In this document: piece by piece, positions 3,896-31,624 of the stretch | Layout: each line of letters starts with the position of its first letter | Numbering within the stretch: the stretch's first letter is position 1 | NCBI RefSeq assembly: GCF_003324675.1 | Contig: NZ_CP030918.1 | Location: 120,001-152,000, forward strand | Direction of reading: 5' to 3' | DNA: 32,000 nucleotides | Origin: Paracoccus suum | GTDB lineage: Bacteria; Pseudomonadota; Alphaproteobacteria; Rhodobacterales; Rhodobacteraceae | The notes under the pieces: model-generated | Database searches by the model: none | Told to the model about the DNA's origin: nothing | What the model saw: the letters and a program-made list of their open reading frames with translations, nothing else | Made by a program: the position numbers and the translations under genes

Positions 3896-4011
3896 AAGTA
3901 GCGGAACGAGGGACAGTGATCTGAACATGACCGTTCCGAGGTCGTGTTCCGAAACCATAATGCCACAGCTTTACGTAAAGTTCCATCTTGCCGAAAAAAA
4001 ACATTTTGTGG

Positions 4012-4428
4012 TCACTGCGCCAGCTTCACGAAGGCCGCCTTCGCCTCCATCAGCCAGCGACGTGGATCGGCGGCGAACTGGCCCCGTGCCTCGTTCGACC
4101 GGAAGAAATAAAGTCGCTGCCCAACGATTGCGAAGTAGCGCGGGTTCCCCTCGCGCAGCTGCCCCTCGGCCAACGACACCGGGCAATGGCCGTCAAAACC
4201 GGGTGCATAGGCGCGGGGGTTGGCCTCGAACAGGGCGCGATGATCTTCGCTGGAAAAATGCCATTCCTGGCCGCCCCAACGGGTCGCGATCGTGGCCTGT
4301 CCCGGCACCGCGGCGTTCTGCGTGCGATAGGCGACCGCATCCATGCCGCCAAGCGCCCAACTGGCCGCAAGCGCCAGCGAGGGAAGCAGCCCCGCAATCA
4401 GGGTGGCAAGGATGGCAGGTTTCAGCAT
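4012..4428 (-). CDS. secreted YHS-domain protein (YHS domain-containing (seleno)protein family, Cys form)
   Basis: N-terminal signal peptide MLKPAILATLIAGLLPSLALA. The body (GGMDAVAY...WHFSSEDHRALFEANPRAYAPGFDGHCP...YFFRSNEARGQF) resembles the YHS/TRASH-like periplasmic family. Confidence 0.7.
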   Translation of the reverse strand: MLKPAILATLIAGLLPSLALAASWALGGMDAVAYRTQNAAVPGQATIATRWGGQEWHFSSEDHRALFEANPRAYAPGFDGHCPVSLAEGQLREGNPRYFAIVGQRLYFFRSNEARGQFAADPRRWLMEAKAAFVKLAQ

Positions 4429-4523
4429 AAGGGGCCTTTTCGCGACTTACCCTGCGGATGTGGCCTGCTTGTCCCAACTGCGCAATCCCGCACAGCCCGC
4501 CCTTGCGCGCTTGTGAACGTATT

Positions 4524-5327
4524 CTACCGCCCGGCATTGCCGGCATAGAGCGCCACCGCAGCCGCATTCGAGACGTTGAGCGAGCCAAAAGCCCCGGGGT
4601 GATCGATCCGCGCAAGGTGATCGCAGACCGCGCGCGTTCCCTCACGCAAGCCCGGTCCCTCGGCGCCAAGGACCAGGCAAACCGCAGCGCCGGCGGGCCC
4701 CGAGGCCAGCACCTCGGCCAGCGTCGGCTCGGCCGCACCGTCGAGGCCGATCACAGTGAATCCCATGTTCTGCATCTCGCGCAGGGCATCGTTGAGGTTC
4801 GGCACGCGCAGGTAGGGCTGTCGCTCCAGCGCGCCCGAGGCGGTCTTGGCCAATGCCCCAGTCTCGGGCGCGGCATGACGCGCAGGGGCGATGACGGCCC
4901 GCGCGCCGAACACCTCGGCCGAGCGCAGGATGGCACCAACGTTATGCGGGTCAGTTACCCGGTCGAGGGCGACAACCAGCGGTCGCGCGCCTGCCGGCCC
5001 CTCGCGCAAACAGACCTCGCTGAGGCTGCCCCAGCGCAGCGGCCGCACCTCCAGCGCGGCGCCCTGGTGGACGCTGTCGGGCGCCAGCGGCACGGTCTTG
5101 TCGAACACCCTCGGGTCGATGATCTCTGGCGTCATCGCCAGCTCGCCCAGCCGGTCGGCGGCATTTCGGGTCAGCACGAGGCGCAGTTTCTCGCGCGCCG
5201 GGTTCGTCAGCGCATCGCGCACGGCGTGCAGTCCGAACAGCCAGATCGTCTCGGCCGCCGAGGCGCGGCGTGCGCGTTCCTTGTCGATCACCCAGGTGGG
5301 CTTTTTCGCCTTCTTGCCTTCGCTCAT
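4524..5327 (-). CDS. rlmB: TrmH/SpoU-family RNA 2'-O-methyltransferase, RlmB-like (23S rRNA Gm2251)
   Basis: MSEGKKAKKPTWVIDKER... followed by the substrate-binding region LFGLHAVRDAL. The C-terminal SpoU methylase region contains DRVTDPHNVGAILRSAE, LVLGAEGPGL and SLNVSNAAAVALY. Start moved to M48 of the track ORF (CAT at 5325-5327). Confidence 0.8.
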   Translation of the reverse strand: MSEGKKAKKPTWVIDKERARRASAAETIWLFGLHAVRDALTNPAREKLRLVLTRNAADRLGELAMTPEIIDPRVFDKTVPLAPDSVHQGAALEVRPLRWGSLSEVCLREGPAGARPLVVALDRVTDPHNVGAILRSAEVFGARAVIAPARHAAPETGALAKTASGALERQPYLRVPNLNDALREMQNMGFTVIGLDGAAEPTLAEVLASGPAGAAVCLVLGAEGPGLREGTRAVCDHLARIDHPGAFGSLNVSNAAAVALYAGNAGR

Positions 5328-5468: not shown

Positions 5469-5552
5469 GGGCGACGAGCTGCAAGGTGCGGCAGCGGACT
5501 GTAACTCCGCCGGGGAGACCCACGCCTGGTTCGATTCCAGGGTCGCCCACCA
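5469..5552 (+). tRNA. tRNA-Tyr(GUA), class II with long variable arm, CCA encoded; atypical D-arm
   Basis: Hand-folded cloverleaf. Acceptor GGGCGAC/GTCGCCC plus A-CCA; anticodon stem GCGGA/TCCGC with loop CTGTAAC (GTA); variable arm CGGGGAGACCCACG; T-arm CCTGG-TTCGATT-CCAGG. The D-arm is GCTG-CAAGGTG-CGGC, with G rather than U at position 8. Confidence 0.75.
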
Positions 5553-18905: not shown

Positions 18906-19011
18906 CCCCCAGCGCGTCCCGGCGCGCCGCCCTTTTTCCCGAAAGGTTTTGACACCCCGCAGGGGCTGTGGCAGGGGGACGCCGATTTGCCAACCCTACC
19001 CGGAGATCCCC

Positions 19012-19341
19012 ATGCCTAAAGAAGAGTGGGGCACCAAACGGATGTGCCCCCATTGCGGTTCGCGTTTCTACGATCTGCAGGCCGATCCGATGACTTGCCC
19101 GGTCTGCAGCGAGACCTTTACTGCGGAAAGCCTGGTCGCCGGCCGCGGCCGCGCCATTGTCCGCGAAAAGGCGGCTGCGGTCGATACCAGCGATGACGAT
19201 GACGTGATCGAGACGGACAGCGAACTGGACGCCAACGAGGCCGAGGCGGACCTGGACGACGACCTGCTGGAAGACGACGATGATGGCGACGTTTCGCTCG
19301 ATGAAATCGCCGACGTGCCCGCGGACGAAGACGAAAACTGA
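19012..19341 (+). CDS. FYDLN-acid (TIGR02300-like) zinc-ribbon protein with acidic tail
   Basis: MPKEEWGTKRMCPHCGSRFYDLQADPMTCPVCSETF (CxxC...CxxC ribbon plus an FYDL motif), followed by a D/E-rich C-terminus. The ATG at 19012 is in frame with the longer track ORF. Confidence 0.75.
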   Translation: MPKEEWGTKRMCPHCGSRFYDLQADPMTCPVCSETFTAESLVAGRGRAIVREKAAAVDTSDDDDVIETDSELDANEAEADLDDDLLEDDDDGDVSLDEIADVPADEDEN

Positions 19342-19463
19342 GGCCTGTTGAAGGCCCTATCATGAAAGGGGGCGCGGGCCGGAAATACCGCTTGCGCCCC
19401 CCGAGACCACCCCATATACGACGCCGCACGCAGCAGGGCACAGACCTGATGCGGACCTCCGGT

Positions 19464-19539
<76 letters not shown>

Positions 19540-19814
19540 TAGACCTATATTGTTTATTTGCATTAAGTTGGCAGGAACTCCCCTGTCAAATGTTTCGGGC
19601 ATGGATTGGCCGAAATCTAGTGGGTCATCGATAGATTCGAGTGGTCGATAAATTGCTTCACTTCCACCCGCAAACGGGCGTTTGCTAAGCGCCGGGTTTA
19701 GGCTTTAGATAACCATTGTCAGGTTGCGTAATGTTTAAGGCCGCCCCGCGTTCGGGAGCCCGGGCTCTCTCGTATCAATCGGGCCGACCAACTTGCCACC
19801 AAGCGGCCGGCGGT

Positions 19815-19963
19815 CCATCCACCGCTTCGCCCGCAAAGTCGCAAACCGGGTGGTGTTCATGGATGCGGGGGTCATTGTCGAGGACCGCAGAACGGAGGAG
19901 TTCTTTGGCGATCCGCGCAGCGACCGGGCCAAGGAATTCCTTTCAAAGATCCTCGGACATTAG
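19815..19963 (+). pseudogene. 3'-terminal remnant (~48 codons) of a polar amino-acid-type ABC transporter ATP-binding gene
   Basis: The frame starting at 19820 translates to HRFARKVANRVVFMDAGVIVEDRRTEEFFGDPRSDRAKEFLSKILGH*. This matches the conserved C-terminus of GlnQ/HisP-like ATPases (FAREVADRVVFMD...FF..P...R.K.FLSKIL). No Walker A/B or signature motif is present upstream in any frame. Confidence 0.7.
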
Positions 19964-20122
19964 GGGAAAGATCCGCGCGGACTTTGCAAGATAGGCGCGC
20001 GGGGCGGCGTGGGCCCACAGGCGACCTTCCCGCTGCGGGAGCGTCTGACGTCGCTGGAGGGCCGACGATGACGGCGCTAATGTTCGCGTGCGAGGGCGCC
20101 TGTCAGGGTGACGCGAGGATGC

Positions 20123-20160: not shown

Positions 20161-20372
20161 CCGGAATATGGGCCGTTGCCCTAAGCCTCACGTGATCGGG
20201 TTCGGCAAGCCGCGCTCAACCGAAAATCCCTCACCCGCCTGAAGTGATAGCGCCGCGGCCCTAGGTCGCTCATGGCCTCGCAGGTATAACCCCGCCGGTT
20301 TGCTATTTCCGCGCCAAGTTGTTTCAGTCGAAGAAGCTCGCCGTCTTTCGCGTCCAATCAAGACAAGAGGTT

Positions 20373-21617
20373 ATGATGATCCCTTCCGCCGACGCCCGCG
20401 TAGACCTCAATCGCTTCTGGACGACGATCGAGCGCTCGGCAGAGATCGGCGCAGGACGGCCGGGAGGGCTTGCGCGCCTGGCTTTGAGCGACAGCGATCG
20501 CGAGATGCGCGATCAGTTCGTCGACTGGTGCCGGGAGGCGGGGCTGACTGTTACCGTAGACCGCGTGGGCTCGGTCTTCGCGCGGCGGGCGGGCCGCGAC
20601 GACGGGTTGGCCCCCGTCATGATCGGATCGCATCTGGACACTCAGATCAACGGCGGTCGTTTCGACGGGATTGCGGGTGTCCTGGCGGGACTGGAAGTTG
20701 TCCACACGCTGAACGATTCCGGCCACATCACGCGACGGCCCATCGTCGTCGCGAACTGGACGAACGAGGAGGGCGCGCGCTTTTCGCCCCCGATGATCGC
20801 CTCGGGGGCCTATGTCGGGCGCTATCCGCTGGAATGGTGCCACGACCTTATTGGCGACGACGGGGCGAGGTTCGGGGATGAACTGGAGCGGATCGGCTAT
20901 GCCGGAAATGCTCCTCTCGGCGGCGAGATCGACGCTTACTTCGAATTGCATATCGAGCAGGGACCGATTCTTCACGCAGAGGGCCGCGAAGTCGGGGTCG
21001 TGACGACCGGGTATCCGAGTCACGGAATCCGCGTACGCTTTGGTGGGGAAACGGCCCATACCGGGCCGACGCCGATGGACATGCGCCACAACGCGTTGAT
21101 CGCGGGCGCGCGTTTCCTGACGGCGGTGGACGACATTGGGTGGGAGTTCGCAGTGCTTGATGGCAAGGCGACGGGCTCGCGCCTTGCGGCTTGGCCGAAC
21201 ATGCCCAGCATCCTGTCCGAAACCGCCGAATGCGTGGCCGACGTGCGTCACCCGGATCGGGTGACAGCCCGCGTCATGGCCGAGAAGATGCGCCGTGCCG
21301 CGCGAGAGGCCGCTGCCCGTGCCGGCTGCACCATGACTATCGAGGACGAGTGGTCATTCGGGGGCGACATCTTCGACCGCGATCTGGTCGACCTTATCCG
21401 GGCCGAGGCGATCCGCCAGGGCCATGACTGGCGCGACATCGCCAGCCAGGCGGGCCACGACGCCTATCACATTGCCACCCGCTATCCGACGGCGATGATC
21501 TTTACGCCCTGCAAGGACGGAATCACGCACAACAACATGGAATATTGCGAGCCAGGCGACTTCCAGGCGGGGTTGAATATCCTGCTGCACGCTGTCGGCC
21601 AGCGCGCCGACCGCTAG
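20373..21617 (+). CDS. M20-family Zn-dependent amidohydrolase (N-carbamoyl-L-amino-acid hydrolase / allantoate amidohydrolase / AmaB-HyuC type)
   Basis: MIGSHLDTQINGGRFDGIAGVLAGLEV, NWTNEEGARF, ELHIEQGP and SQAGHDA are characteristic of the AmaB/AllC branch of peptidase M20. AAGAGG lies upstream of the tandem ATG ATG at 20373 and 20376; spacing slightly favours 20376. Confidence 0.85.
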   Translation: MMIPSADARVDLNRFWTTIERSAEIGAGRPGGLARLALSDSDREMRDQFVDWCREAGLTVTVDRVGSVFARRAGRDDGLAPVMIGSHLDTQINGGRFDGIAGVLAGLEVVHTLNDSGHITRRPIVVANWTNEEGARFSPPMIASGAYVGRYPLEWCHDLIGDDGARFGDELERIGYAGNAPLGGEIDAYFELHIEQGPILHAEGREVGVVTTGYPSHGIRVRFGGETAHTGPTPMDMRHNALIAGARFLTAVDDIGWEFAVLDGKATGSRLAAWPNMPSILSETAECVADVRHPDRVTARVMAEKMRRAAREAAARAGCTMTIEDEWSFGGDIFDRDLVDLIRAEAIRQGHDWRDIASQAGHDAYHIATRYPTAMIFTPCKDGITHNNMEYCEPGDFQAGLNILLHAVGQRADR

Positions 21618-21737
21618 CCCTTTCTTGGGCAGTCCTCCCGGCGATCAGGAATTGGTGCAAGCCCAAGAATACCGCTTGACCCCCCGCGCGCCGCCAGCGC
21701 ACTCTTTTCCCAAATAGCGCGATGCGCATGGCATGAG

Positions 21738-21779
21738 GGCCTTACACCTGTTGTTGCGGGGGTAGGGCCTTTTTCTTTT
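21738..21779 (+). terminator. strong intrinsic terminator directly upstream of the amiC-like RBS; candidate antitermination target or attenuator
   Basis: GGCCTTAC (21738-21745) pairs with GTAGGGCC (21762-21769), with possible extra inner C-G pairs. It is followed by TTTTTCTTTT (21770-21779). The GTG start of the next gene is at 21791. Confidence 0.7.
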
Positions 21780-21790
21780 GGGGATGACGG

Positions 21791-22843
21791 GTGAGGCGGA
21801 GAGTTGAGATCGGGATCCTGCATTCGTCCTCGGGCGATTACTGCGCCATTGCAGCGGCAAGCCGCGCGGGCGCACTTGCGGGCGTGTCCGATGTTAACGC
21901 AAGCGCGCAGTCCTTTATCGAAATGATGCCGGTGCTGCGCGACCCTCGGGGGCAGGTCGACCTCTATGCGCCGCTCTGCCACGACATCCTCACCACAAGC
22001 CGCGCTCGCCACGTCATCGGTTGTGCGACCTCTTCCAGCCGCAAGGAAGTCCTGCCGGTGATCGAGCGCCACGGGGCGACGCTGTGGTATGCCCTGCCCT
22101 ACGAGGGGTTCGAAGCGTCCGATCATGCCGTTTACATGCACGCCTGCCCGAACCAGCATCTGCTGCCCCTGTTGGACTGGGCGCTGCCGCGGTTCGGCAC
22201 GCGGGTGCATCTGGTCGGCTCGAATTATATCTGGGGCTGGGAGATCAACAGGTTGGCGCGCGAAGTTGTAGCCAACGCGGGCGGCTCGATCACGGCAGAA
22301 CGGCACTTGCCAATGGGCGAGATCGCCGTTGCCTCGATGGTCGAGGAGATCGCCGATCTTCGGCCAGATTTCGTGCTGAACTCACTGGTAGGCACCACGC
22401 AATATGCCTTCGTCGCGGCGCTGAGGGCCGTCAGGCCAGACCTGCCGGTCCTGTCCTGCAACCTCACGGAGTGCGAACTGCCGCGGATGGGCGGGGCCGC
22501 CGAGGGGCTGATCGCAGCGGGCCCCTATTTCGCGGAAACCGGCACCGGCTTCGCCAATTCACACGCGGCTGCCGCCCATGCCTCTGTGATCGAGATGGCG
22601 CGGCTGTTCGAGCGGCACGAAGGTGGCGAAGATATGCCGCTGGCCGAATTGCTGGCACTGGACCAAGGCGCGGGCCCGATCGATTTTGAAACCCACCACA
22701 CCGCCCTGCCGGTGCTGATCGCCGAGGTCCGGGACGGTGCCTTCCAGGTGCTCCGCCGTCTGCCGCCGGTGCCGGGCGACCCGTATCTTGCGCGGCACGA
22801 CCGGCGAGCGCCCGCGCGCGCGCAACTGCGGCTCGTGCCGTGA
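21791..22843 (+). CDS. amiC: AmiC-like cytoplasmic amide-sensor (type-I periplasmic-binding-protein fold, no signal peptide), negative regulator partner of AmiR
   Basis: 350 aa with no signal peptide. Begins VEIGILHSSSGDY, has LVGSNYIWGWEINR..., and shows overall LivK/AmiC-like organisation. The stop overlaps the start of an ANTAR protein (GTGA at 22840-22843), as in amiC-amiR pairs. Confidence 0.75.
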   Translation: MRRRVEIGILHSSSGDYCAIAAASRAGALAGVSDVNASAQSFIEMMPVLRDPRGQVDLYAPLCHDILTTSRARHVIGCATSSSRKEVLPVIERHGATLWYALPYEGFEASDHAVYMHACPNQHLLPLLDWALPRFGTRVHLVGSNYIWGWEINRLAREVVANAGGSITAERHLPMGEIAVASMVEEIADLRPDFVLNSLVGTTQYAFVAALRAVRPDLPVLSCNLTECELPRMGGAAEGLIAAGPYFAETGTGFANSHAAAAHASVIEMARLFERHEGGEDMPLAELLALDQGAGPIDFETHHTALPVLIAEVRDGAFQVLRRLPPVPGDPYLARHDRRAPARAQLRLVP

Positions 22844-23436
22844 GCCGGGCCCTGAACATCCTCGGGCTGGCCGGCGCCCGGGCTGCCATCCTGCACCGGC
22901 CACACCCGACGGTCGCCGCCATCGAACGCCAACTGGCCGCGATCGGGTTGTCGGCCAACGCCAGCTGGCCAGAGCTGGTCCCCGGGATGGCCGCGGATTT
23001 CCTGTTCTTTGACGTCGACATGGGGTTCGACGCCCAGTTCCCCTGGTTGCCGGGGCAAAGTCCCATACCACTCATCGCCCTGATCGGGTCCGAGGCGCCG
23101 GGGCGGATCGAATGGTCTCTGGCGCGCGGCGCGCATGCGCAGTTGCTGAAGCCGGTGGGCGATCACGGCGTCTATTCGGCGCTGCTGATCGCGCAGGCGA
23201 CCTTTGCCGCCCAGCAAAGCCTGTCGGCCGAGATTGGCGATCTTCGCGACCGCCTGGCGGGGCGCGAGACTGTGGTGCGCGCGGTGATGGCACTGGTGAG
23301 CCAAGGGCTGACCGATGAGGAGGCGTTTGCCCGGCTGCGTCGCCTCGCGACCGACCGTCGCGAGAGTTTCGAGGCTGCAGCCAAGCGGGTGCTCGCCCGC
23401 ACCGACAGCCTGCCAGTCCGAAAGGGGCCCCGATGA
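22840..23436 (+). CDS. amiR: AmiR-like transcription antiterminator (pseudo-receiver plus coiled coil plus ANTAR RNA-binding domain)
   Basis: 198 aa, similar in size to AmiR. The C-terminal ANTAR-like helices are RETVVRAVMALVSQGLTDEEAFARLRRLATDRRESFEAAAKRVL. It is immediately downstream of, and overlapping, the amiC-like gene. Confidence 0.8.
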   Translation: MSRALNILGLAGARAAILHRPHPTVAAIERQLAAIGLSANASWPELVPGMAADFLFFDVDMGFDAQFPWLPGQSPIPLIALIGSEAPGRIEWSLARGAHAQLLKPVGDHGVYSALLIAQATFAAQQSLSAEIGDLRDRLAGRETVVRAVMALVSQGLTDEEAFARLRRLATDRRESFEAAAKRVLARTDSLPVRKGPR

Positions 23437-24338
23437 CATCACCGCTGACCCCTGCTGCGGGAACGACCGTCACCGCTGCGCCGCCCGAGCGGGGGGTGCT
23501 GGCACGACTGCTGCGCAGGCCGCTGGCCCTGCTGGGCATCGTCCTGATCGTGCTGGTGGTAGCGGGCGCGGTGGGTGCGCCGTGGCTCACCTCCTATCCG
23601 CCGGATCAGCAGAACTTCGACGGCCTGACGCTGGAGGGGGCGCCGATGCCGCCGGGCGGACCGTGGCTGATGGGTACCGACCTGCTGGGCCGTGACCTGT
23701 GGTCGCGGCTGCTTTACGGCGCGCGCACATCGCTAATGATCGGCGTCCTCGCCAACGGCATCGCGGTCGCCTTGGGAACGGCGGTGGGACTGACCGCGGG
23801 ATGGGTCCGCGGCTGGACCGGCACGATCCTGATGCGGCTGACGGACCTGATGATGGCCTTTCCCGCGCTGCTGCTGGCCATCTGCCTTGCCGCGGTCTTT
23901 CGCCCCTCGCTCTGGATCGTGGCGCTGGTGATCGCGCTGGTGAACTGGGTCCAGACCGCCCGCGTGATCTATACCGAAACCACGGGTCTGGCCGAGCGCG
24001 ACTTTGTCGCCGCCGAACGCACGCTCGGCGCGTCCGGCGCGCGCATCCTGTGGCACCATATCCTGCCGCATCTGGTGCCGACGATCATCGTCTGGGCGAC
24101 CTTGGGCATTTCGACCACCGTGCTGCTGGAGGCGACGCTGTCCTACCTGGGCGTGGGCGTGCAGCCGCCGACGCCCAGCTGGGGAAACATCATCTTCGAG
24201 AACCAGACCTATTTCCAGTCGGCGCCCTGGCTCGTCTTTATCCCGGGTGCGGCGATCCTGATCCTCGCACTGGCCTTCAACCTCGTGGGCGATGCGCTGC
24301 GCGACGTGCTGGACCCGACGCAAAGGGGGGCGCGCTGA
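23433..24338 (+). CDS. ABC transporter permease, OppC/DppC-like
   Basis: An N-terminal TM segment followed by the motif SYPPDQQNF. Contains the BPD-transporter EAA-like region (YTETTGLAERDFVAAERTLGASGARILWHHILPHL) and six hydrophobic segments. The ATGA start overlaps the amiR stop. Confidence 0.88.
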   Translation: MTSPLTPAAGTTVTAAPPERGVLARLLRRPLALLGIVLIVLVVAGAVGAPWLTSYPPDQQNFDGLTLEGAPMPPGGPWLMGTDLLGRDLWSRLLYGARTSLMIGVLANGIAVALGTAVGLTAGWVRGWTGTILMRLTDLMMAFPALLLAICLAAVFRPSLWIVALVIALVNWVQTARVIYTETTGLAERDFVAAERTLGASGARILWHHILPHLVPTIIVWATLGISTTVLLEATLSYLGVGVQPPTPSWGNIIFENQTYFQSAPWLVFIPGAAILILALAFNLVGDALRDVLDPTQRGAR

Positions 24339-25264
24339 TGGCGGCCTATCTGCTGCGGCGGCTGTTTCAGGCTGCGCTGATCCTGCTCGGGGTCAGCATC
24401 ATCACCTTTGGCCTGCTCTATGTGCTTCCGGCCGATCCGGTGCGCCAGATCGCCGGCCGCTCGGCAACGGCCGAGGTGGTCGAGAACATCCGCCGCCAAC
24501 TGGGCCTCGATCAGCCGGTGTGGGTGCAATACGGCCGCTACCTGTGGGGGCTGCTGCATGGCGACATGGGGCGCAGCTACCTGCAGCGAACCGAGGTGGC
24601 GACCCTGATCGCCGCCCGCCTGCCCGCGACGCTGCAGCTGATGGTCGGCGCGATCCTGGCCGAGCTGACGATCGGCCTGACGCTGGGTGTCATCGCAGCG
24701 CTGAACCGGGGGCGCCCGCTCGACACCGGGCTGATGGTGTCCTCCTTCGTCGCCGTTTCGGCGCCGCAGTTCGTCGTCGCACTGCTGCTGCTCTACGTTT
24801 TTGCGGTCAAGCTGGGCTGGTTTCCCATCGGCGGCTATGGAACGCTTGACCATCTGGTGCTGCCCTCCGTCACGCTCGGGATCATGGGCGCGGGCTGGTA
24901 TTCGCGGATGATGCGATCCTCGATGCTGGACGTGCTGCGTGCCGACTATATCCGCACAGCCCGCGCCAAGGGCCTGTCGCGCATGCGCGTGATCCTGCGC
25001 CATGCGCTGCCGAACGCGATCCTGCCCATCGTCGCCATGATCGGCATGGACATCGGCATCTTCATGGGCGGCGTGGTCGTCGTCGAAAGCGTCTTTGGCT
25101 GGCCCGGCATCGGGCAACTGGCCTGGCAGGCGATCCAGCGCGTCGACATTCCGATCATCATGGGAGTGACCATTACCTCGGCCGTGGCCATCGTCCTGGG
25201 CAATCTGCTGGCCGACCTGATCGCGCCATTCATCGATCCGCGCATCAAGCTGCGCTTGAACTAA
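24338..25264 (+). CDS. ABC transporter permease, OppB/DppB-like
   Basis: MAAYLLRRLFQAALILLGVSIITFGLLYVLPADPV is the classic DppB/OppB N-terminus. Contains the EAA region DYIRTARAKGLSRMRVILRHALPNA. The start overlaps the upstream stop (TGATG). The track ORF from 23699 is an upstream extension. Confidence 0.9.
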   Translation: MAAYLLRRLFQAALILLGVSIITFGLLYVLPADPVRQIAGRSATAEVVENIRRQLGLDQPVWVQYGRYLWGLLHGDMGRSYLQRTEVATLIAARLPATLQLMVGAILAELTIGLTLGVIAALNRGRPLDTGLMVSSFVAVSAPQFVVALLLLYVFAVKLGWFPIGGYGTLDHLVLPSVTLGIMGAGWYSRMMRSSMLDVLRADYIRTARAKGLSRMRVILRHALPNAILPIVAMIGMDIGIFMGGVVVVESVFGWPGIGQLAWQAIQRVDIPIIMGVTITSAVAIVLGNLLADLIAPFIDPRIKLRLN

Positions 25265-25283
25265 CAGGGAGAGGGAAACGAAA

Positions 25284-26912
25284 ATGAAAACCTGGCTCAT
25301 GTCCTCCGCGCTGGCGCTTTCGCTGGCTGCCTTTGCGGCGCCTGCCCTGGCGCAGAGCGCGCCGGATCCCGACGCCAAGCCCGGCGGCGACATCGTCATC
25401 ACCTACAAGGATGACGTGGCGACGCTGGACCCCGCGATCGGCTATGACTGGCAGAACTGGTCGATGATCAAGTCAATCTTCGACGGGCTGATGGACTATG
25501 TCCCCGGCACCACCGACCTGCGTCCCGGCCTCGCCGAAAGTTACGAGATGTCGGACGACGGGCTGGCCTACACCTTCCACCTGCGCCCGGGCGTCAAGTT
25601 CCACAACGGGCGCGAGATGACCGCGGACGATGTGAAGTATTCGCTTGACCGCGTGACCGACCCGGCGACGCAATCGCCCGGCGCCGGCTTCTTTGGCTCG
25701 ATCAAGGGGTATGACGAAGCCGCCTCGGGCGCTGCCAAGGGGCTGGCCGGCGTCACGGCGGTCGATCCCAAGACGGTCAAGATCGAACTGACGCGCCCGG
25801 ACGCCACCTTCCTCCACGTCATGGCGTTGAACTTCAGCTATGTGGTGCCGAAAGAGGCGGTTGAGGAGCATGGCGCCGACTTCGGCAAGCACCCGGTCGG
25901 CACGGGCGCGTTCCGCATGGCGGAATGGACTATCGGCCAGCGTCTGGTGCTGGAAAAGAACCCCGATTTCTGGACCCCCGGCATCCCCTATCTGGACCGC
26001 GTGACCTTCGAGATCGGGCAGGAGCCGGTCGTCGCCCTGCTGCGCCTGCAGAAGGGCGAGGTGGACATTCCCGGCGACGGCATTCCGCCCGCGAAGTTCC
26101 AGGAAGTGATGAACGACCCCGAGCAGAAGGCCCGCGTGGTCGAAGGCGGCCAGCTGCAGACCGGCTATGTCACCATGAACGTGACCACCCCGCCCTTCGA
26201 CAAGCCCGAGGTCCGGCGCGCGGTGAACATGGCGCTGAACAAAGACCGGATCGTGCAGATGATCAACAATCGCGCGGTGCCTGCGAACCAGCCGCTGCCG
26301 CCCTCGATGCCGGGCTACACCACCGACTACAAGGGCTATGGCTATGACGTCGAAGGCGCCAAGAAGCTGATGGCGGATGCCGGCCTTTCGGGCGGTGTCG
26401 ATACCCAGCTGTTCGCCATGAACACCGACCCCAACCCGCGGATCGCGCAGGCAATCCAGCAGGACCTCGCGGCGATCGGAATCCGGGCCGAGATCAAGGC
26501 ACTGGCGCAGGCCAACGTGATCGAGGCCGGCGGCAATGGCAGCGCGCCGATGATCTGGTCGGGCGGCATGGCGTGGATCGCGGATTTCCCGGACCCGTCG
26601 AACTTTTACGGTCCGATCCTGAGCTGCAGCGGCGCCGAGGCGGGCGGCTGGAACTGGGCGAAATACTGCAATGCCGAACTGGACGCGGCCGCTGCCAAGG
26701 CCGACAGCATGGTCGGCGAGGCCGCGAAGGACGCGCGACTGAAGGCCTGGTCCGACGTCTACATGAAGGTGATGGAGGACGCCCCCTGGGCGCCGGTCTT
26801 CAACGAGCAGCGCTTCACCATGAAATCCCCCCGCATGGGCGGCGCCGATGCGCTGTATGTCGATCCCGTCTCGATTCCGATCAACTATGATTATGTATAT
26901 GTGAACCAGTAA
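25284..26912 (+). CDS. ABC transporter substrate-binding protein, family 5 (peptide/nickel/opine type)
   Basis: Signal peptide MKTWLMSSALALSLAAFAAPALA. Contains DPAIGYDW, GLMDY, YTFHLRPGVKFHNG and DVKYSLDR, typical of the SBP_bac_5 family. The RBS GGGAGAGGGAAA precedes the ATG. Confidence 0.9.
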   Translation: MKTWLMSSALALSLAAFAAPALAQSAPDPDAKPGGDIVITYKDDVATLDPAIGYDWQNWSMIKSIFDGLMDYVPGTTDLRPGLAESYEMSDDGLAYTFHLRPGVKFHNGREMTADDVKYSLDRVTDPATQSPGAGFFGSIKGYDEAASGAAKGLAGVTAVDPKTVKIELTRPDATFLHVMALNFSYVVPKEAVEEHGADFGKHPVGTGAFRMAEWTIGQRLVLEKNPDFWTPGIPYLDRVTFEIGQEPVVALLRLQKGEVDIPGDGIPPAKFQEVMNDPEQKARVVEGGQLQTGYVTMNVTTPPFDKPEVRRAVNMALNKDRIVQMINNRAVPANQPLPPSMPGYTTDYKGYGYDVEGAKKLMADAGLSGGVDTQLFAMNTDPNPRIAQAIQQDLAAIGIRAEIKALAQANVIEAGGNGSAPMIWSGGMAWIADFPDPSNFYGPILSCSGAEAGGWNWAKYCNAELDAAAAKADSMVGEAAKDARLKAWSDVYMKVMEDAPWAPVFNEQRFTMKSPRMGGADALYVDPVSIPINYDYVYVNQ

Positions 26913-26913
26913 C

Positions 26914-27873
26914 ATGTGCAGAAACTGCGACCACACTATCCACCGCGCGCAGCATCACTTTGGCTGGGACAACAGCATCCCCCCTGCCCTGCGCGTCGAA
27001 CCGGGCCAGTCGGTCCATTTCGAATGTGTCGATTCCTCGGCGGGCCAGCTTGGCCCGTCATCCACCGTGGCCGATGTGGCGGCACTGGATTTCGCCAGGA
27101 TCAACCCCGTCACCGGCCCGGTCTGGGTCGAGGGCGCTAAGCCGGGCGATGCACTGAAGATCACCATCGACGGCTTCACCCCGCAGGTCGCCGAGGGCAG
27201 CGCCTGGGGCTGGACGGCGAACATCCCGGGCTTCGGCCTGCTTGCCGACCAGTTTACCGATCCGGCCCTGACGATCTGGAAATATGATGCTGCGAACCCG
27301 CAGATGTCGCTGTTCGGGCGCGAAGGCAAGGTCCCCCTCAAGCCCTTTGCCGGCACCATAGGCTGCGCGATGGCCGAGGACGGGCCGCATTCCATCGTTC
27401 CCCCGCGCCGCGTGGGCGGCAACCTCGATATCCGGGATCTGGCAGCGGGGACGGTCCTTTATCTGCCGGTCGAGGTCGAGGGCGCGCTGTTCAGCGTCGG
27501 CGATACTCATGCCGCGCAGGGCGACGGCGAGATCTGCGGCACCGCCATCGAAAGCCCGATGGACGTGTCGCTGCGGTTCGATCTGGTCAAGGACGCGCGG
27601 CTCAAGACGCCGCGCTTCACGACGCCGGGTCCCGTGTCGCGGCATCTGGACGCCAAGGGCTACGAGGTGACGACCGGGCTCGCACCGGACCTGATGCAGG
27701 CCTCACGGGATGCCGTCGCGGGGATGGTGGATCTGCTGTGCGCGCAGCGGGGCATGGCCCCGGTCGATGCCTACATGCTGATGTCCACCTGTGGTGATCT
27801 GCGGATATCGGAGATCGTCGACATGCCCAACTGGGTCGTCAGCTTCTACTTCCCGCGTATCGTCTTCGAATGA
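26914..27873 (+). CDS. acetamidase/formamidase (FmdA/AmdA) family amidohydrolase
   Basis: HHFGWDN, INPVTGPVWVEGAKPGDAL, PPRRVGGNLDIRDLAAGTVLYLPVEVEGALFSVGDTHAAQGDGEICGTAIE and MLMSTCGDLRISEIVD are family-typical motifs. The ATG is 1 nt after the SBP stop. Confidence 0.88.
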   Translation: MCRNCDHTIHRAQHHFGWDNSIPPALRVEPGQSVHFECVDSSAGQLGPSSTVADVAALDFARINPVTGPVWVEGAKPGDALKITIDGFTPQVAEGSAWGWTANIPGFGLLADQFTDPALTIWKYDAANPQMSLFGREGKVPLKPFAGTIGCAMAEDGPHSIVPPRRVGGNLDIRDLAAGTVLYLPVEVEGALFSVGDTHAAQGDGEICGTAIESPMDVSLRFDLVKDARLKTPRFTTPGPVSRHLDAKGYEVTTGLAPDLMQASRDAVAGMVDLLCAQRGMAPVDAYMLMSTCGDLRISEIVDMPNWVVSFYFPRIVFE

Positions 27874-29594
27874 CCGGCCCGGTGCTCTCGGTACAGGGGC
27901 TGACACTGGCGGCAGGTGCGCAGCCGCTGGTCGAGGACCTGTCCTTCGATCTGTTCCCCGGCGAGACCTTGTGCATCGCCGGGGAAAGCGGCTCGGGCAA
28001 GTCGCTGACCTCGCTGGCGCTGATGGGGCTTTTGCCACCCGGCGTGAAGCGGCGCGCCGGAAAGATCAGCCTTGCCGGACAGGACGTGACGGCGCTGCCC
28101 GAACGGCGCATGCGCCGGCTGCGGGGCGACAGCATCGCGATGATCTTTCAAGAGCCGATGACCTCGCTCAACCCGGTGCTGACCATCGGCACGCAGCTGG
28201 TCGAGGCGATTCGCAGCCACGACCCCGACGCCGATGCGCCCGCCGCGGCCCTCGCCGCCCTTCGGGCTGTCCGCTTGTCCCAGCCAGACCGGCGGATGCG
28301 CCAATACCCGCATGAACTCTCGGGCGGGATGCGGCAGCGCGTGATGATCGCGATGGCACTGGCGCTGCGCCCTCAAGTGCTGATCGCAGACGAGCCGACC
28401 ACGGCGCTGGACGTGACGGTGCAGCGCGAGGTGCTGGACCTGCTGCGCGATCTTCAGCGCGAGACGGGGACGGCCATCATCCTGATCACCCATGACATGG
28501 GCGTCGTCGCCGAAATGGCCGACCGGGTGATCGTAATGCAGAACGGCCGCATGGTCGAGGCCAGCCCGGTTGCGGAATTGTTCGCACGACCGTCGCAGCC
28601 CTACACGCAAGCACTGCTTGCCGCGGTGCCGCGCATGGGTGACGGCGGCCCCCCAGTCGCGCTCCCCCTAGCCGAGCCGATCGCCCGGCTGACCGAAGTT
28701 TCGGTCAACTATGACGTTCAGGGTGGCCTGCTGGGCCGCGTCACCCATCGTGTGCACGCGGTCGAGCAGGTCAGCTTCGACATCGCCGCAGGCGAGACGT
28801 TCTCGCTCGTGGGCGAATCCGGCTGCGGCAAATCCACCATCGCCCGTGCCATGACAGGACTTGTCCCGCATCGTGGACGCATCGAAATCGCCGGGCATCT
28901 GGTCCCGCCCGACGGCCAAAGCGCGCCCCGCGCGCTTCGCCGAGAGGTCCAGCTGGTTTTCCAGGACCCCGCGGCGGCGCTTAATCCACGCAAACCAGTC
29001 GGTGAACTCGTGGCCGAACCTCTGGTCATCCACGGGATCGGTGACCGCGTGCAGCGCCGTGCCCGCGCGGCCGAGCTTTTCGACCGGGTCGGCCTGTCCC
29101 GGAGTCAACTGGATCGGTATCCCCACGAGTTTTCCGGCGGCCAACGCCAGCGTATCTGCATCGCCCGTGCACTGGCGCTGAACCCCAAGCTGATCATCGC
29201 GGATGAAAGCGTAAGCGCGCTGGACGTGTCCGTGCAGGCCCGGGTGCTGGCGCTGCTGGCCGAGCTGAAGTCCGAGCTGGGGGTCAGCTACCTGTTCATC
29301 AGCCACGACATGGCGGTGGTCGAGAACATCAGCGACCGCATCGGCATCATGTATCTGGGCCAGATGGTCGAGATGGGCACCCGCGCGCAGATCTTCGGCA
29401 ATCCGCGCCATCCTTACACGCGCCGCCTGATCGACGCCGTCCCGATCCCCGATCCCGCCTACGTCCGCCCCCCCGCGCCACGAATGGCGAGCGACGTTCC
29501 AAGCCCCGTCTGGCCAGTCGGGCAAGCGCCGGAGCGCATCCGGCTGGAGGACATCGGGGCGGGCCATCTTGTAGCGGCCGGAGCGAACGGATGA
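27870..29594 (+). CDS. ABC transporter ATP-binding protein, fused double ATPase (DppD-DppF/OppD-OppF type)
   Basis: Two Walker A motifs (GESGSGKS, GESGCGKS), two signature motifs (LSGGMRQR, FSGGQRQR) and two Walker B motifs (VLIADEPTTALD, LIIADESVSALD). The ATGA start overlaps the amidase stop. Confidence 0.93.
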   Translation: MTGPVLSVQGLTLAAGAQPLVEDLSFDLFPGETLCIAGESGSGKSLTSLALMGLLPPGVKRRAGKISLAGQDVTALPERRMRRLRGDSIAMIFQEPMTSLNPVLTIGTQLVEAIRSHDPDADAPAAALAALRAVRLSQPDRRMRQYPHELSGGMRQRVMIAMALALRPQVLIADEPTTALDVTVQREVLDLLRDLQRETGTAIILITHDMGVVAEMADRVIVMQNGRMVEASPVAELFARPSQPYTQALLAAVPRMGDGGPPVALPLAEPIARLTEVSVNYDVQGGLLGRVTHRVHAVEQVSFDIAAGETFSLVGESGCGKSTIARAMTGLVPHRGRIEIAGHLVPPDGQSAPRALRREVQLVFQDPAAALNPRKPVGELVAEPLVIHGIGDRVQRRARAAELFDRVGLSRSQLDRYPHEFSGGQRQRICIARALALNPKLIIADESVSALDVSVQARVLALLAELKSELGVSYLFISHDMAVVENISDRIGIMYLGQMVEMGTRAQIFGNPRHPYTRRLIDAVPIPDPAYVRPPAPRMASDVPSPVWPVGQAPERIRLEDIGAGHLVAAGANG

Positions 29595-29791: not shown

Positions 29792-30655
29792 TCAAACCCC
29801 TGAGCGAAGCTCCGCGCGCCTTATGACTCGCGCATCCGCGCCCGGCGTCGCACCAAAAGCCTGCCGATAAGCCCGCGTGAAATGCGAGCGTGATGCGTAG
29901 CCGGCCGCAACGGCCGCTTCCGTCACGCTTGCCCCGTCGGCCAACGTCCGGCGCGCGGCCTGCATGCGGGCCTCGGCCAGGATCTTGCGGAAGGGCCTCC
30001 CCAGCCGGTCGAGCGCGCGGCGCAGGGATGACGCACCCATGCCGAGTTCACGGGCGAGTTGGGCCACCGTCCAATGCGCATCCGGCTGCGCCGCGATCAG
30101 CCACTGCGCGCGCTGGGCGATGTCGCCCGCCAGCAGTATCTGCCCGGCAGAATCCTCCGCCAGCAGCATCAGCAGTTCGGTCAACCGCACCTTGCCGACC
30201 GCCGCATGGTTGTTGCCGATGGCGGCGGCGGTGTGGACCAAGGTTTCGACCAGTTCAGCGGTCAGCCTGATGGCCAGACGCTCAATCCGCCGCGGCCCGG
30301 CGATCGGTTGGATCGGGGCGGGCAGATTCTCGATGCTGAGGATCAGGGATTCGTACAGCCCACGAGCGTCAGGAATGTTAACCACGTCGACCGGCGCCCC
30401 GCCAGGCAGCGCGAAAACGGTACCGGCGGGCAAGACCTCGTTAAACGTGCCGGTCCAGACCTCCTTGGTGCCGCGCAGGACAATGCCGAGCAGGGGCGTC
30501 TCGGGCGTCACCGAGGCCAGCCGCTCGCGTTCAAGCGCGCAGTAGCAGAACAGCCGCCCGGCAATGCGCTGCTCGCCGGTGGCGCCGGAGGTGACGACGA
30601 AATGGTCGAGGCGCGCGAGCAATTCGGCACTCAGGTCATGGGTCATCTGGTTCAT
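29792..30655 (-). CDS. AraC family transcriptional regulator
   Basis: C-terminal double HTH (WTVAQLARELGMGASSLRRAL...SVTEAAVAAGYASRSHFTRAYRQAFGATP) with an N-terminal cupin-like sensor part. Start placed at MNQMTHDL (CAT at 30653-30655; an alternative ATG at 30646). The longer track ORF runs into the divergent promoter region. Confidence 0.85.
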   Translation of the reverse strand: MNQMTHDLSAELLARLDHFVVTSGATGEQRIAGRLFCYCALERERLASVTPETPLLGIVLRGTKEVWTGTFNEVLPAGTVFALPGGAPVDVVNIPDARGLYESLILSIENLPAPIQPIAGPRRIERLAIRLTAELVETLVHTAAAIGNNHAAVGKVRLTELLMLLAEDSAGQILLAGDIAQRAQWLIAAQPDAHWTVAQLARELGMGASSLRRALDRLGRPFRKILAEARMQAARRTLADGASVTEAAVAAGYASRSHFTRAYRQAFGATPGADARVIRRAELRSGV

Positions 30656-30663
30656 GGGGCACA

Positions 30664-30693
30664 GTCTGACATGCAGCAGCCTCCATGTCTGAC
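30664..30693. promoter_or_regulatory. direct repeat GTCTGAC x2 (23 nt start-to-start) in the araC/MBL divergent spacer; candidate AraC-type site
   Basis: caGTCTGACatg at 30664-30670 and catGTCTGACgcg at 30687-30693, between the divergent starts at 30655 and 30794. Confidence 0.25.
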
Positions 30694-30793
30694 GCGATTT
30701 GAGCGTTTCAGGCCCATTTTGGTGAACTTCGGGCGCATGCGAAGGCCGCTGGAAGGGCACGGTCCGGGCATCTATCCACTTAAGGAACGCGCA

Positions 30794-31624
30794 ATGAAAT
30801 CGTCCCTTCTGACCCTCATTCTGCTGTCGCTGCCGGCCATGGCAACGGCGCAAACCGCACCACCAGCGAAGCCGCAAGTCGAATTATGGCGGCTCGATTG
30901 CGGGTCGATCGATGTCAGCAACATCAACTTCTTTTCGGACACCGAGGCGTATCCGGACCACCCGCTGCAGATGACCGACAGTTGCTATCTGATCCGGCAT
31001 GGCGAGGAATATCTGCTCTGGGACGCCGGCCTGCCGCTCGACGCCGCGCCGCAGGGGCCCGGGCCGCAGCCCAAGCCGGGACCGGCGATCACGAAGCAGC
31101 TGGCCGAGATTGGCGTGATGCCCGAACAGGTCACCCGCGTTGGCATCAGTCACGCGCATTTCGACCATATGGGGCAGGCCGCCGACTTTCCCGCAGCGAC
31201 GCTGCTGATTGGGGCAGGCGACTGGGCCGAGCTGACTTCCGACAAGCCCGGTTTCGGCATTGATCCCAAGCTGGCACAGCCGTGGCGCGACGGCGGCAAG
31301 GTCGAGGCGGTGGAAGGCGATCTGGACGTGTTCGGCGACAGCAGCGTGACGATGCTGAAGATGCCCGGCCACACACCAGGCGAGACGGCGCTGCTGGTCC
31401 GGCTGGCCGACTTCGGACCGGTCCTTCTGTCAGGTGACGTGGTGCACTTCGCCCAGCAGCTTCTCACCGGCAGCGTGCCGCCTTTCAATGTCAACCGTGC
31501 CGACAGCCTCGCCTCGATGGCGCGACTTGAGGGGCTTGCAAAAGCCCAGGGCGCGCGACTGGTAATCCAGCATGATCCAGACCACATCGGCCGCCTGCCG
31601 GCCTTCCCGGCGAGTGCGCAATAA
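30794..31624 (+). CDS. secreted MBL-fold metallo-hydrolase (N-acyl-homoserine-lactonase-like)
   Basis: Signal peptide MKSSLLTLILLSLPAMATA. HxHxDH motif (ISHAHFDHMG), then downstream PGHTPGE and GDVVHF metal-ligand regions. AAGGAA precedes the ATG at 30794. The track ORF from 30059 is an upstream extension. Confidence 0.82.
   Translation: MKSSLLTLILLSLPAMATAQTAPPAKPQVELWRLDCGSIDVSNINFFSDTEAYPDHPLQMTDSCYLIRHGEEYLLWDAGLPLDAAPQGPGPQPKPGPAITKQLAEIGVMPEQVTRVGISHAHFDHMGQAADFPAATLLIGAGDWAELTSDKPGFGIDPKLAQPWRDGGKVEAVEGDLDVFGDSSVTMLKMPGHTPGETALLVRLADFGPVLLSGDVVHFAQQLLTGSVPPFNVNRADSLASMARLEGLAKAQGARLVIQHDPDHIGRLPAFPASAQ

Follow-up and report, generated by a model that had tools for sequence, protein, structure and literature searches.

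A family of operons whose solute-binding protein (SBP) takes L-amino acid amides as ligands was described by Smith, Frkic, Rahman, Jackson and Kaczmarski, with the MeAmi operon of Mesorhizobium sp. AP09 as its representative (Smith et al. 2024, bioRxiv 10.1101/2024.02.22.581678). The SBP_bac_5 proteins counted there in conserved operons number 610; they come from Rhizobiales, Mesorhizobium and Rhodobacteraceae, and members of the MeAmi_SBP cluster share more than 35% identity. A MeAmi-type operon combines ATP-binding cassette (ABC) transporter genes with the gene of an FmdA_AmdA amidase, and its 5' end always encodes a Peripla_BP_5 protein that lacks a signal peptide together with an ANTAR protein. 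The AlphaFold2 model of this Mesorhizobium pair resembles the AmiC–AmiR structure 1QO0, and canonical dual-hexaloop ANTAR targets could not be identified by these authors. Here we describe a seven-gene cluster on contig NZ_CP030918.1 of Paracoccus suum, lying in a window of 32,000 nucleotides (positions 120,001 to 152,000 of the contig; coordinates below are those of the window). We consider it likely that the cluster is a MeAmi-type operon for the uptake and hydrolysis of L-amino acid amides, autoregulated by leader antitermination in the style of AmiC and AmiR. The architecture of the operon was already described in 2024; the sole new result is a conserved RNA leader.

MeAmi_SBP's ligands and crystal structure are known (Smith et al. 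2024). The protein binds glycinamide (50 μM), L-alaninamide (1.5 μM) and L-tyrosinamide (0.19 μM), and free amino acids, about 100 di- and tripeptides, glutathione, octopine and acetamide are not ligands. In the crystal (PDB 8UPI), L-serinamide is contacted by Tyr32, Trp34, Met408, Trp410, Ile411, Asp413 and Trp435, and a Ca2+ site is formed by Asp45, Asp49 and Tyr207. The canonical RNA target of ANTAR proteins consists of two hairpins of at least 3 bp, with hexaloops whose first base is A and whose fourth is G, and the second hairpin overlaps the terminator at its 5' base (Ramesh et al. 2012, PMC3369931). In the seed alignment of that study, the amiE leader of Pseudomonas aeruginosa reads GGG-ACCGAA-CCU ... 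AGAGC-AAAUGG-GCUCU.

The seven genes of the window cluster all lie on the plus strand. The first (21791-22843, GTG start) encodes a 350-residue AmiC-like ligand sensor without a signal peptide (Peripla_BP_5, E = 1.5e-70), referred to here as cPBP, for cytosolic protein of the periplasmic-binding-protein fold. It is followed by the genes of an AmiR-like antiterminator of 198 residues (22840-23436; AmiR_N pseudo-receiver and ANTAR domains), an ABC permease of the DppC/OppC type (23433-24338; Pfam BPD_transp_1 and OppC_N), a second permease of the DppB/OppB type (24338-25264; BPD_transp_1 and BPD_transp_1_N), a family-5 SBP orthologous to MeAmi_SBP (25284-26912; SBP_bac_5, E = 4.6e-100; Sec-type signal peptide MKTWLMSSALALSLAAFAAPALA), a cytoplasmic FmdA_AmdA-family amidase of 319 residues (26914-27873; PF03069, E = 1.5e-63) and a fused DppD/DppF-type double ATPase of 574 residues (27870-29594; two ABC_tran domains and oligo_HPY). 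Successive genes overlap or nearly touch, the junctions reading GTGA at 22840-22843, ATGA at 23433-23436, TGATG at 24336-24340, a 19-nt gap 5' of the SBP gene, a 1-nt gap 5' of the amidase gene and ATGA at 27870-27873; the ATG of the second permease gene, at 24338, is in frame inside the TGATG junction. A consensus terminator scan supported no internal terminator dividing the operon and returned fewer sites than in shuffled sequences, and the 3' flank past the ATPase gene holds no significant structure (z = +0.4).

The window SBP matches chain A of 8UPI with E = 7e-280 and 78% identity over 517 positions, and all seven of the ligand-contact residues listed above are identical. At the Ca2+ site, Asp45 and Asp49 are kept. 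This conservation of residues argues that the protein is an orthologue of MeAmi_SBP that would likewise bind L-amino acid amides. The accompanying importer, with its B- and C-type BPD_transp_1 permeases, family-5 SBP and oligo_HPY ATPase, belongs to the Opp/Dpp (PepT) type. None of its proteins reaches the NCBIfam equivalog cut-offs for Dpp, Opp, Gsi, Nik or Cnt, and the importer therefore has none of these named specificities; the fused ATPase resembles GsiA and YejF and scores below the cut-offs of both.

The two proteins encoded at the 5' end are most similar, among solved structures, to AmiC and AmiR themselves. The cPBP aligns with AmiC (1PEA/1QO0, E = 1.5e-38) from residue 4 onwards, which leaves no room for a signal peptide; it is also distantly related to UrtA-type binding proteins, by an NCBIfam match below the cut-off. 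The ANTAR protein aligns with AmiR (1QO0_D, E = 4.7e-9) over residues 10-187 against 10-192, scores 34.2 bits for Pfam ANTAR (2.2e-8; cut-off 27.3) and 31.1 bits for AmiR_N (2.5e-7; cut-off 27), and has the AmiR architecture of an N-terminal pseudo-receiver, a coiled coil and a C-terminal ANTAR domain. The equivalents of AmiC residues Ser85, Arg88, Tyr104, Pro107, Tyr108, Glu109 and Tyr150 are kept in the ligand pockets of 70-71 of the 71 cPBP orthologues. The equivalent of Tyr83 is Val, Ile, Thr or Met in the orthologues and Ala in the window protein, and it is never aromatic; further changes relative to AmiC are Met84 to Thr, Tyr152 to Trp and Arg154 to Trp. A 2026 study reports that engineered AmiC Y83H gains a response to the α-amino acid amide (S)-2-aminobutyramide (PMC13531289), and by analogy this result fits a natural α-amino-acid-amide sensor in the present operon. 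Residues 79-82 of the window cPBP (22025-22036) stand apart from those of its relatives, with Ala79 in place of the Val or Ile of 67/71 orthologues and Ser82 in place of the Trp of 60/71, so that its pocket may be larger than theirs.

To survey the neighbourhoods of related genes, the window SBP was scanned against one genome per GTDB species, which gave at least 588 relatives, and 80 loci were fetched, the closest relative among them being an uncultured Paracoccus with 87% identity. The order cPBP-ANTAR-permease C-permease B-SBP-amidase-ATPase is found in 72 of the 76 informative loci, those in which the contig reaches far enough. MeAmi-type operons are also present, under generic annotation, on chromids and megaplasmids of Rhodobacter, Paracoccus, Rhizobium, Neorhizobium and Pseudochrobactrum, and in Sinorhizobium meliloti. 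In the S. meliloti locus (L081, CP090106.1) the operon has the cobalamin genes cobN/cobO on one side and cobA on the other; the PLSDB record of this replicon is labelled pSymB, yet at 3.7 Mb it is chromosome-sized.

These results bear on an original prediction made for this DNA from its letters and open reading frames. Its seven packed plus-strand genes, their domains and every junction string were found exactly as it had given them, and profile searches and structure matches agree on an AmiC-like 350-residue protein and an ANTAR domain in the 198-residue protein, that is, on an AmiC/AmiR-type pair as the first two genes. The Pfam assignments likewise agree with its Opp/Dpp-type importer with a family-5 binding protein and an embedded FmdA_AmdA enzyme, and its view of one compact unit, probably a single transcript, is supported. 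The span that it gave, 21618-29594, is right for the genes and misplaced at its start, since 21618 is the first base past the stop codon of the upstream M20 gene; the 173 nt from 21618 to 21790 are a non-coding leader and the first gene begins at the GTG at 21791. Two further statements did not hold. The order C, B, A, amidase, fused DF, called unusual, occurs in 72/76 informative loci and is therefore the norm of the family. The suggestion that no characterised system has this architecture is contradicted by Smith et al. 2024, who had already described both the operon family and L-amino acid amides as the ligand of its SBP; with the 78% identical match to 8UPI, the architecture proves to be characterised and its substrate known.

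The non-coding region upstream of the cPBP gene contains, on the plus strand, the elements of a putative transcription attenuator. A -35-like box, TTGACC (21676-21681), and a weak -10 sequence at about 21699-21705 form the putative operon promoter, from which transcription would start near 21711-21713. At or near the 5' end of the resulting RNA is an AAAUA box (21712-21716), a consensus position of both our alignment A1 and the covariance model R1. It is followed by a hairpin, P1 (GCGC-GAU-GCGC, 21717-21727), with a 4-bp stem and a GAU triloop, and by a second hairpin, P2 (GGC-AUGAGG-GCC, 21730-21741), with a 3-bp stem, which is the candidate antiterminator and candidate ANTAR site. The 3' strand of P2 supplies the first three bases of an intrinsic-terminator hairpin (21739-21768; -17.8 kcal/mol, z = -3.4), which is followed by the U-run UUUUUCUUUU (21770-21779), read from the sequence. 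Directly past the U-run is a ribosome-binding site, GGGGA (21780-21784), 5' of the GTG at 21791. This terminator was missed by the consensus terminator scan because of a mismatch within its stem. In a search of the whole window with R1, the leader is the only significant match (25.7 bits, E = 1.4e-4), the runner-up scoring 12 bits. When the whole window was scanned with Rfam at E <= 1, two tRNAs and chance matches came up, none of them in the leader, so that no curated family covers this element. One of these tRNAs, tRNA-Tyr(GTA) at 5469-5552, also gave a sub-threshold match to the Rfam tRNA-Sec family, an artefact of its long variable arm. A reading of GGCA...GC as a sigma-54 promoter was rejected, the spacing being GG-N7-GC and not the GG-N10-GC of the established consensus.

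The anatomy of this leader recurs in all 70 of the leaders compared, with GGC-N6-GCC 62-92 nt 5' of the cPBP start codon and P2 overlapping the terminator base in each. In 67/70, the GCC of P2 forms the first three bases of a hairpin that ends no more than 3 nt from a U-run, and these terminator hairpins range in the relatives from -16.7 to -36.9 kcal/mol, with a median of -26.5. From the start of the U-run to the cPBP start codon the distance is 6-35 nt (median 22). Upstream of P2, the sequence TTGAC is present no more than 90 nt away in 62/70 leaders and at 52-63 nt in 59/70 (mode 58), the distance in the window being 54 nt. Unguided RNAalifold analysis of 33 full leaders recovered the base of the terminator, where 7 of 11 pairs show compensatory changes.

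Covariation in P1 and P2 was assessed in a plain MAFFT alignment of 61 distinct segments against 500 shuffles. P1 is paired in 76.6% of cells, and both-side changes number 33 cells against 13.8 ± 2.9 in the shuffles, none of the 500 reaching the observed value; its loop varies from 3 to 7 nt. The P1 and P2 structure as a whole is 85% paired, compared with 30-52% in slid controls. In the window taken alone, thermodynamics gives P1 and P2 no support (z = -0.6), so that the support for these hairpins is comparative only. The loop of P2 is strongly patterned: position 1 is A in 60 of the 61 leaders, position 2 is U or A in 55, G never occurs at position 4 (C in 39, U in 12 and A in 10) and position 5 is always a purine.

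Model R1 finds one match per locus, placed just upstream of the cPBP gene, and this holds for two loci outside the seed. It also matches four independent replicons, from S. meliloti, Rhodobacter sp. CZR27, P. liaowanqingii and R. rosettiformans. Mesorhizobium marinum (L046) carries two equally scoring motifs upstream of its sensor gene (958-1003 and 1203-1248), 245 nt apart, in what looks like a tandem duplication of the attenuator. Weak matches of 17-22 bits recur about 575 nt into the SBP gene (L013, L024, L032, L048, L063, L069 and others); these are most likely a coincidence arising from a conserved coding segment with GGCA...GCC.

The leader motif co-occurs with the ANTAR gene. Three loci carry the transporter and amidase genes without the AmiC/AmiR pair and without the motif. 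Two of them (L011 and L026) have no regulator pair and no R1 match at E <= 1; in the third (L021) the upstream sequence at hand, 752 nt (1-752), shows no ANTAR gene, and there is no R1 match at the same threshold. This last, binned as Anaerolineae, is probably a mis-binned contig. An uncultured Paracoccus (L024) has kept the AmiC-like gene (3937-5013) without an ANTAR gene. Of all the leader terminators its own is the weakest (-10.6 kcal/mol), the A at loop position 1 is missing, and the leader looks like an antitermination switch in decay. Other regulatory or metabolic genes stand upstream at some of these loci: a Crp-family regulator gene lies divergently upstream in L024, a divergent GntR/FCD regulator gene takes the place of the pair in L026 (3863-4798), and an Amidohydro_2 gene is found upstream in L011 (1-5300).

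We conclude that the leader is probably the long-sought target of the AmiR-like antiterminator. A more specific proposal, which we put forward tentatively and rate at rather less than even, is that it represents the ANTAR target missed in 2024 and a distinct recognition mode of the AmiR clade, in which the AAAUA box and a single 3-bp hairpin would be the only invariant determinants, the hairpin overlapping the terminator and having an A-W-N-H-R-N loop without G at position 4, and P1 being optional. The P2 loop of the amiE leader, AAAUGG (A at position 1, U at 4, G at 5), fits this pattern. In common with the canonical target, the family has a hairpin of at least 3 bp with a hexaloop that starts with A and overlaps the 5' base of the terminator. 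A second hairpin lies 1-3 nt upstream in most leaders, though not in all lineages.

A number of observations weigh against these interpretations of the leader and the operon. The minimum-free-energy fold of the window leader does not include P2; this would be expected of a protein-stabilised antiterminator and is not proof of one. The three P2 pairs never vary in the 61 leaders, and for this reason the pairing of P2 is not provable by covariation. In the RNAalifold consensus the U-run pairs through its first U with the purine of loop position 5, and this purine may serve the terminator rather than protein binding. Compared with the canonical target, G is found at position 4 of P2 in 0/61, and the loops of P1, of 3-7 nt and a triloop in the window, lack the A1/G4 signature. 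P1 is missing in several lineages, including three of the four independent replicons (S. meliloti, R. rosettiformans and P. liaowanqingii), so the dual hairpin is optional in this leader family; where P1 is absent, the AAAUA box is kept and abuts P2 directly or nearly so. The P1-less sites are at L083:1549-1578, L084:1373-1401 and L081:2000-2032, and the GTDB loci L065, L043 and L052 are alike. As to the SBP, Tyr207 of the MeAmi_SBP Ca2+ site is replaced by Phe229 (25968-25970).

Part of this evidence would suit a different account of the leader, in which GGC-N6-GCC is a DNA operator, or the leader a constitutive attenuator free of ANTAR control, with AmiC and AmiR acting elsewhere. GGC-N6-GCC is after all a DNA palindrome, and the missing covariation in P2, the departure of its loops from the canonical A1/G4 rule and the failure of the 2024 authors to find a canonical ANTAR motif (Smith et al. 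2024) are all in keeping with such an account. The conservation of the loop is however asymmetric, which makes the operator reading unlikely: the A at position 1, present in 60/61, has no matching U at position 6, and position 2, mostly U or A, is not complementary to the G or A of position 5. Moreover, the element always lies on the sense strand and precisely where the terminator has its 5' base, it is lost or degenerate where the ANTAR gene is missing, and the window offers no other R1 match on which the regulator could act. We regard this account as distinctly unlikely.

Under antitermination by the AmiR-like protein, the operon would work as follows. Transcription from the promoter with the -35 box at 21676-21681 would begin the leader RNA near the AAAUA box (21712). 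In the absence of inducer, the AmiC-like cytosolic sensor would sequester the ANTAR protein and the leader would fold into the terminator (21739-21768 and U-run), so that most transcripts would end about 15 nt before the first gene, basal read-through providing a little transporter and regulator. L-Amino acid amides would be captured in the periplasm by the SBP and imported by the Opp/Dpp-type permeases and the fused ATPase. Binding of the cytoplasmic amide to the sensor would then release an ANTAR dimer, which would bind the nascent leader and stabilise the 3-bp hairpin P2 (21730-21741); since P2 takes the basal GCC of the terminator, RNA polymerase would read through the seven genes. Finally, the FmdA_AmdA amidase would convert the amide to L-amino acid and ammonium, feeding nitrogen and carbon metabolism and removing the inducer.

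The amidase belongs to FmdA_AmdA by Pfam family membership and is predicted to be an L-amino-acid-amide hydrolase. Its nearest solved structures, 5UBU, 2II1, 2F4L and 3TKK, are of uncharacterised short acetamidase/formamidase proteins, and its homologues, at least 7998 in number, are all generically named. LamA of Ochrobactrum anthropi, the subject of work by Sonke and colleagues in 2005, is reported to be an FmdA_AmdA-family enzyme of about 314 residues that is strictly L-selective on α-amino acid amides. A reference in PMC7431475, citing Sonke 2005, places an L-selective α-amino-acid amidase of O. anthropi as 'from the formamidase family'. Smith et al. 2024 do not cite the O. anthropi L-amidase work and do not draw the link, likely in our view, between the operon family and this industrial enzyme. 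A literature search for later work on the amidase or on the ANTAR target found none in the library that it covered.

The plus-strand gene immediately upstream of the leader (20319-21617), outside the system described here, encodes an M20 amidohydrolase (Peptidase_M20) of the hydantoinase/carbamoylase or allantoate-amidohydrolase family. The open reading frame scores above the NCBIfam cut-offs of the hydantoinase/carbamoylase family and of an allantoate amidohydrolase subfamily, and its real start is probably some 54 nt downstream, at the residues MMIPS. The original prediction had counted this N-carbamoyl-type neighbour among the pointers to a larger amide, ureido or N-acyl substrate. An M20 homologue lies within 7 kb of the SBP gene in 0 of the 80 related loci, and R1 has no significant match upstream of the M20 gene; on these two grounds we ruled it out as a member of the pathway. 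The neighbour is specific to this genome among the 80 loci and therefore carries no information on the substrate, and the operon's own promoter and leader separate it from the operon, which deprives a ureido or N-carbamoyl substrate of support. Of the sensor-gated uptake and deamidation that had been proposed, the part concerning an amide larger than acetamide stands, and the ureido or N-acyl part does not.

A different substrate, either another α-amino carboxamide-like compound or a ureido or N-carbamoyl compound that the M20 enzyme would help to process, has nonetheless to be considered. MeAmi_SBP may bind further compounds with amino-acid-amide-like motifs (Smith et al. 2024), and the residues Ala79 and Ser82 of the window sensor are unusually small beside the Val/Ile and Trp of its orthologues; the carbamoylase-family gene next door could be read in the same sense. 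Set against this are the identity of the seven ligand contacts, the long list of peptides, opine and free amino acids that MeAmi_SBP does not bind, the position of the M20 gene outside the leader-controlled unit and its absence from all 80 related loci. We judge a different substrate to be unlikely.

Several other features of the flanks were noted. Between the M20 stop codon and the -35 box there is a 9-bp inverted repeat, TTCTTGGGC (21622-21630) and GCCCAAGAA (21661-21669), without a U-run, which could be a 3' structure of the M20 transcript or a protein-binding site. A tRNA-Ala(GGC) gene (19464-19539) lies in the kilobase of lowest GC content in the window (19001-20000; 0.59 against about 0.67), after which comes the M20 gene; this kilobase may mark an insertion boundary for the M20 gene, which elsewhere is not syntenic with the operon. 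At the other end, an AraC-family regulator gene (29792-30877, minus strand) converges on the 3' end of the operon and is overlapped on the opposite strand by a long open reading frame (30059-31624, plus strand) whose C-terminal part has the metallo-beta-lactamase fold, its true start lying probably well downstream of 30059.

For the operon itself the identification alters little beyond its annotation. Genes of this kind are at present annotated generically, as 'peptide ABC transporter' or 'acetamidase/formamidase family protein', and the window operon can be annotated by transfer from a published and partly characterised family as an L-amino-acid-amide importer and amidase under AmiC/AmiR-type control. 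With its naturally small residue at the position of Tyr83, the sensor family would be a natural counterpart to the engineered AmiC biosensors for amino acid amides. The leader provides a concrete element, about 70 nt long and conserved in both Rhodobacterales and Rhizobiales, for a point left open in 2024, and natural variants are at hand in the P1-less leaders, the ANTAR-less loci and the duplicated leader. If our tentative proposal on recognition is right, genome-wide searches that apply the dual-hexaloop A1/G4 rule overlook an entire class of targets, which would include hundreds of alphaproteobacterial operons and arguably the P2 loop of amiE itself.

Compared with the MeAmi operon, the window operon has the same seven gene types, with the regulators at the 5' end and the FmdA_AmdA gene between those of the SBP and the ATPase, and the taxonomic range of our loci, Rhizobiales and Rhodobacteraceae, equals that of the MeAmi family; the leader attenuator is absent from the published account. 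The resemblance to other amide systems is more partial. With O. anthropi LamA, the amidase has in common that both are alphaproteobacterial enzymes of the FmdA_AmdA family, of about 314 and 319 residues, and the activity reported for LamA is the one predicted here. FmdABCDEF of Methylophilus methylotrophus and UrtABCDE have Liv/Urt-type (cluster B) transporters, and the formamidase is a long enzyme of 400 residues. The window operon shares with them FmdA-family amide hydrolysis coupled to binding-protein-dependent uptake, and differs in its PepT/Opp-type transporter and its short amidase of 319 residues.

The closest parallel in regulation is the amiEBCRS operon of P. aeruginosa. Both have a cytosolic amide sensor of the periplasmic-binding-protein fold and an AmiR-type ANTAR protein, and in both the leader contains an intrinsic terminator that is overlapped at its 5' base by a small hairpin with a hexaloop. 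The regulators, however, come first in the operon here and after amiE there; the stem of P2 is 3 bp here and 5 bp there, P1 being variable or absent in the present family; and a complete Opp/Dpp-type ABC importer stands in place of AmiB/AmiS. The enzyme is of the FmdA_AmdA family, whereas AmiE belongs to the nitrilase superfamily, and the sensor pocket is remodelled (Tyr83 to a small residue, Tyr152 and Arg154 to Trp), the predicted inducer being an α-amino acid amide in place of acetamide and propionamide. With its FmdA_AmdA enzyme and its altered pocket (Tyr83 to Ala, Val or Ile; Tyr152 to Trp), the system would therefore work like AmiC and AmiR without being an ami operon.

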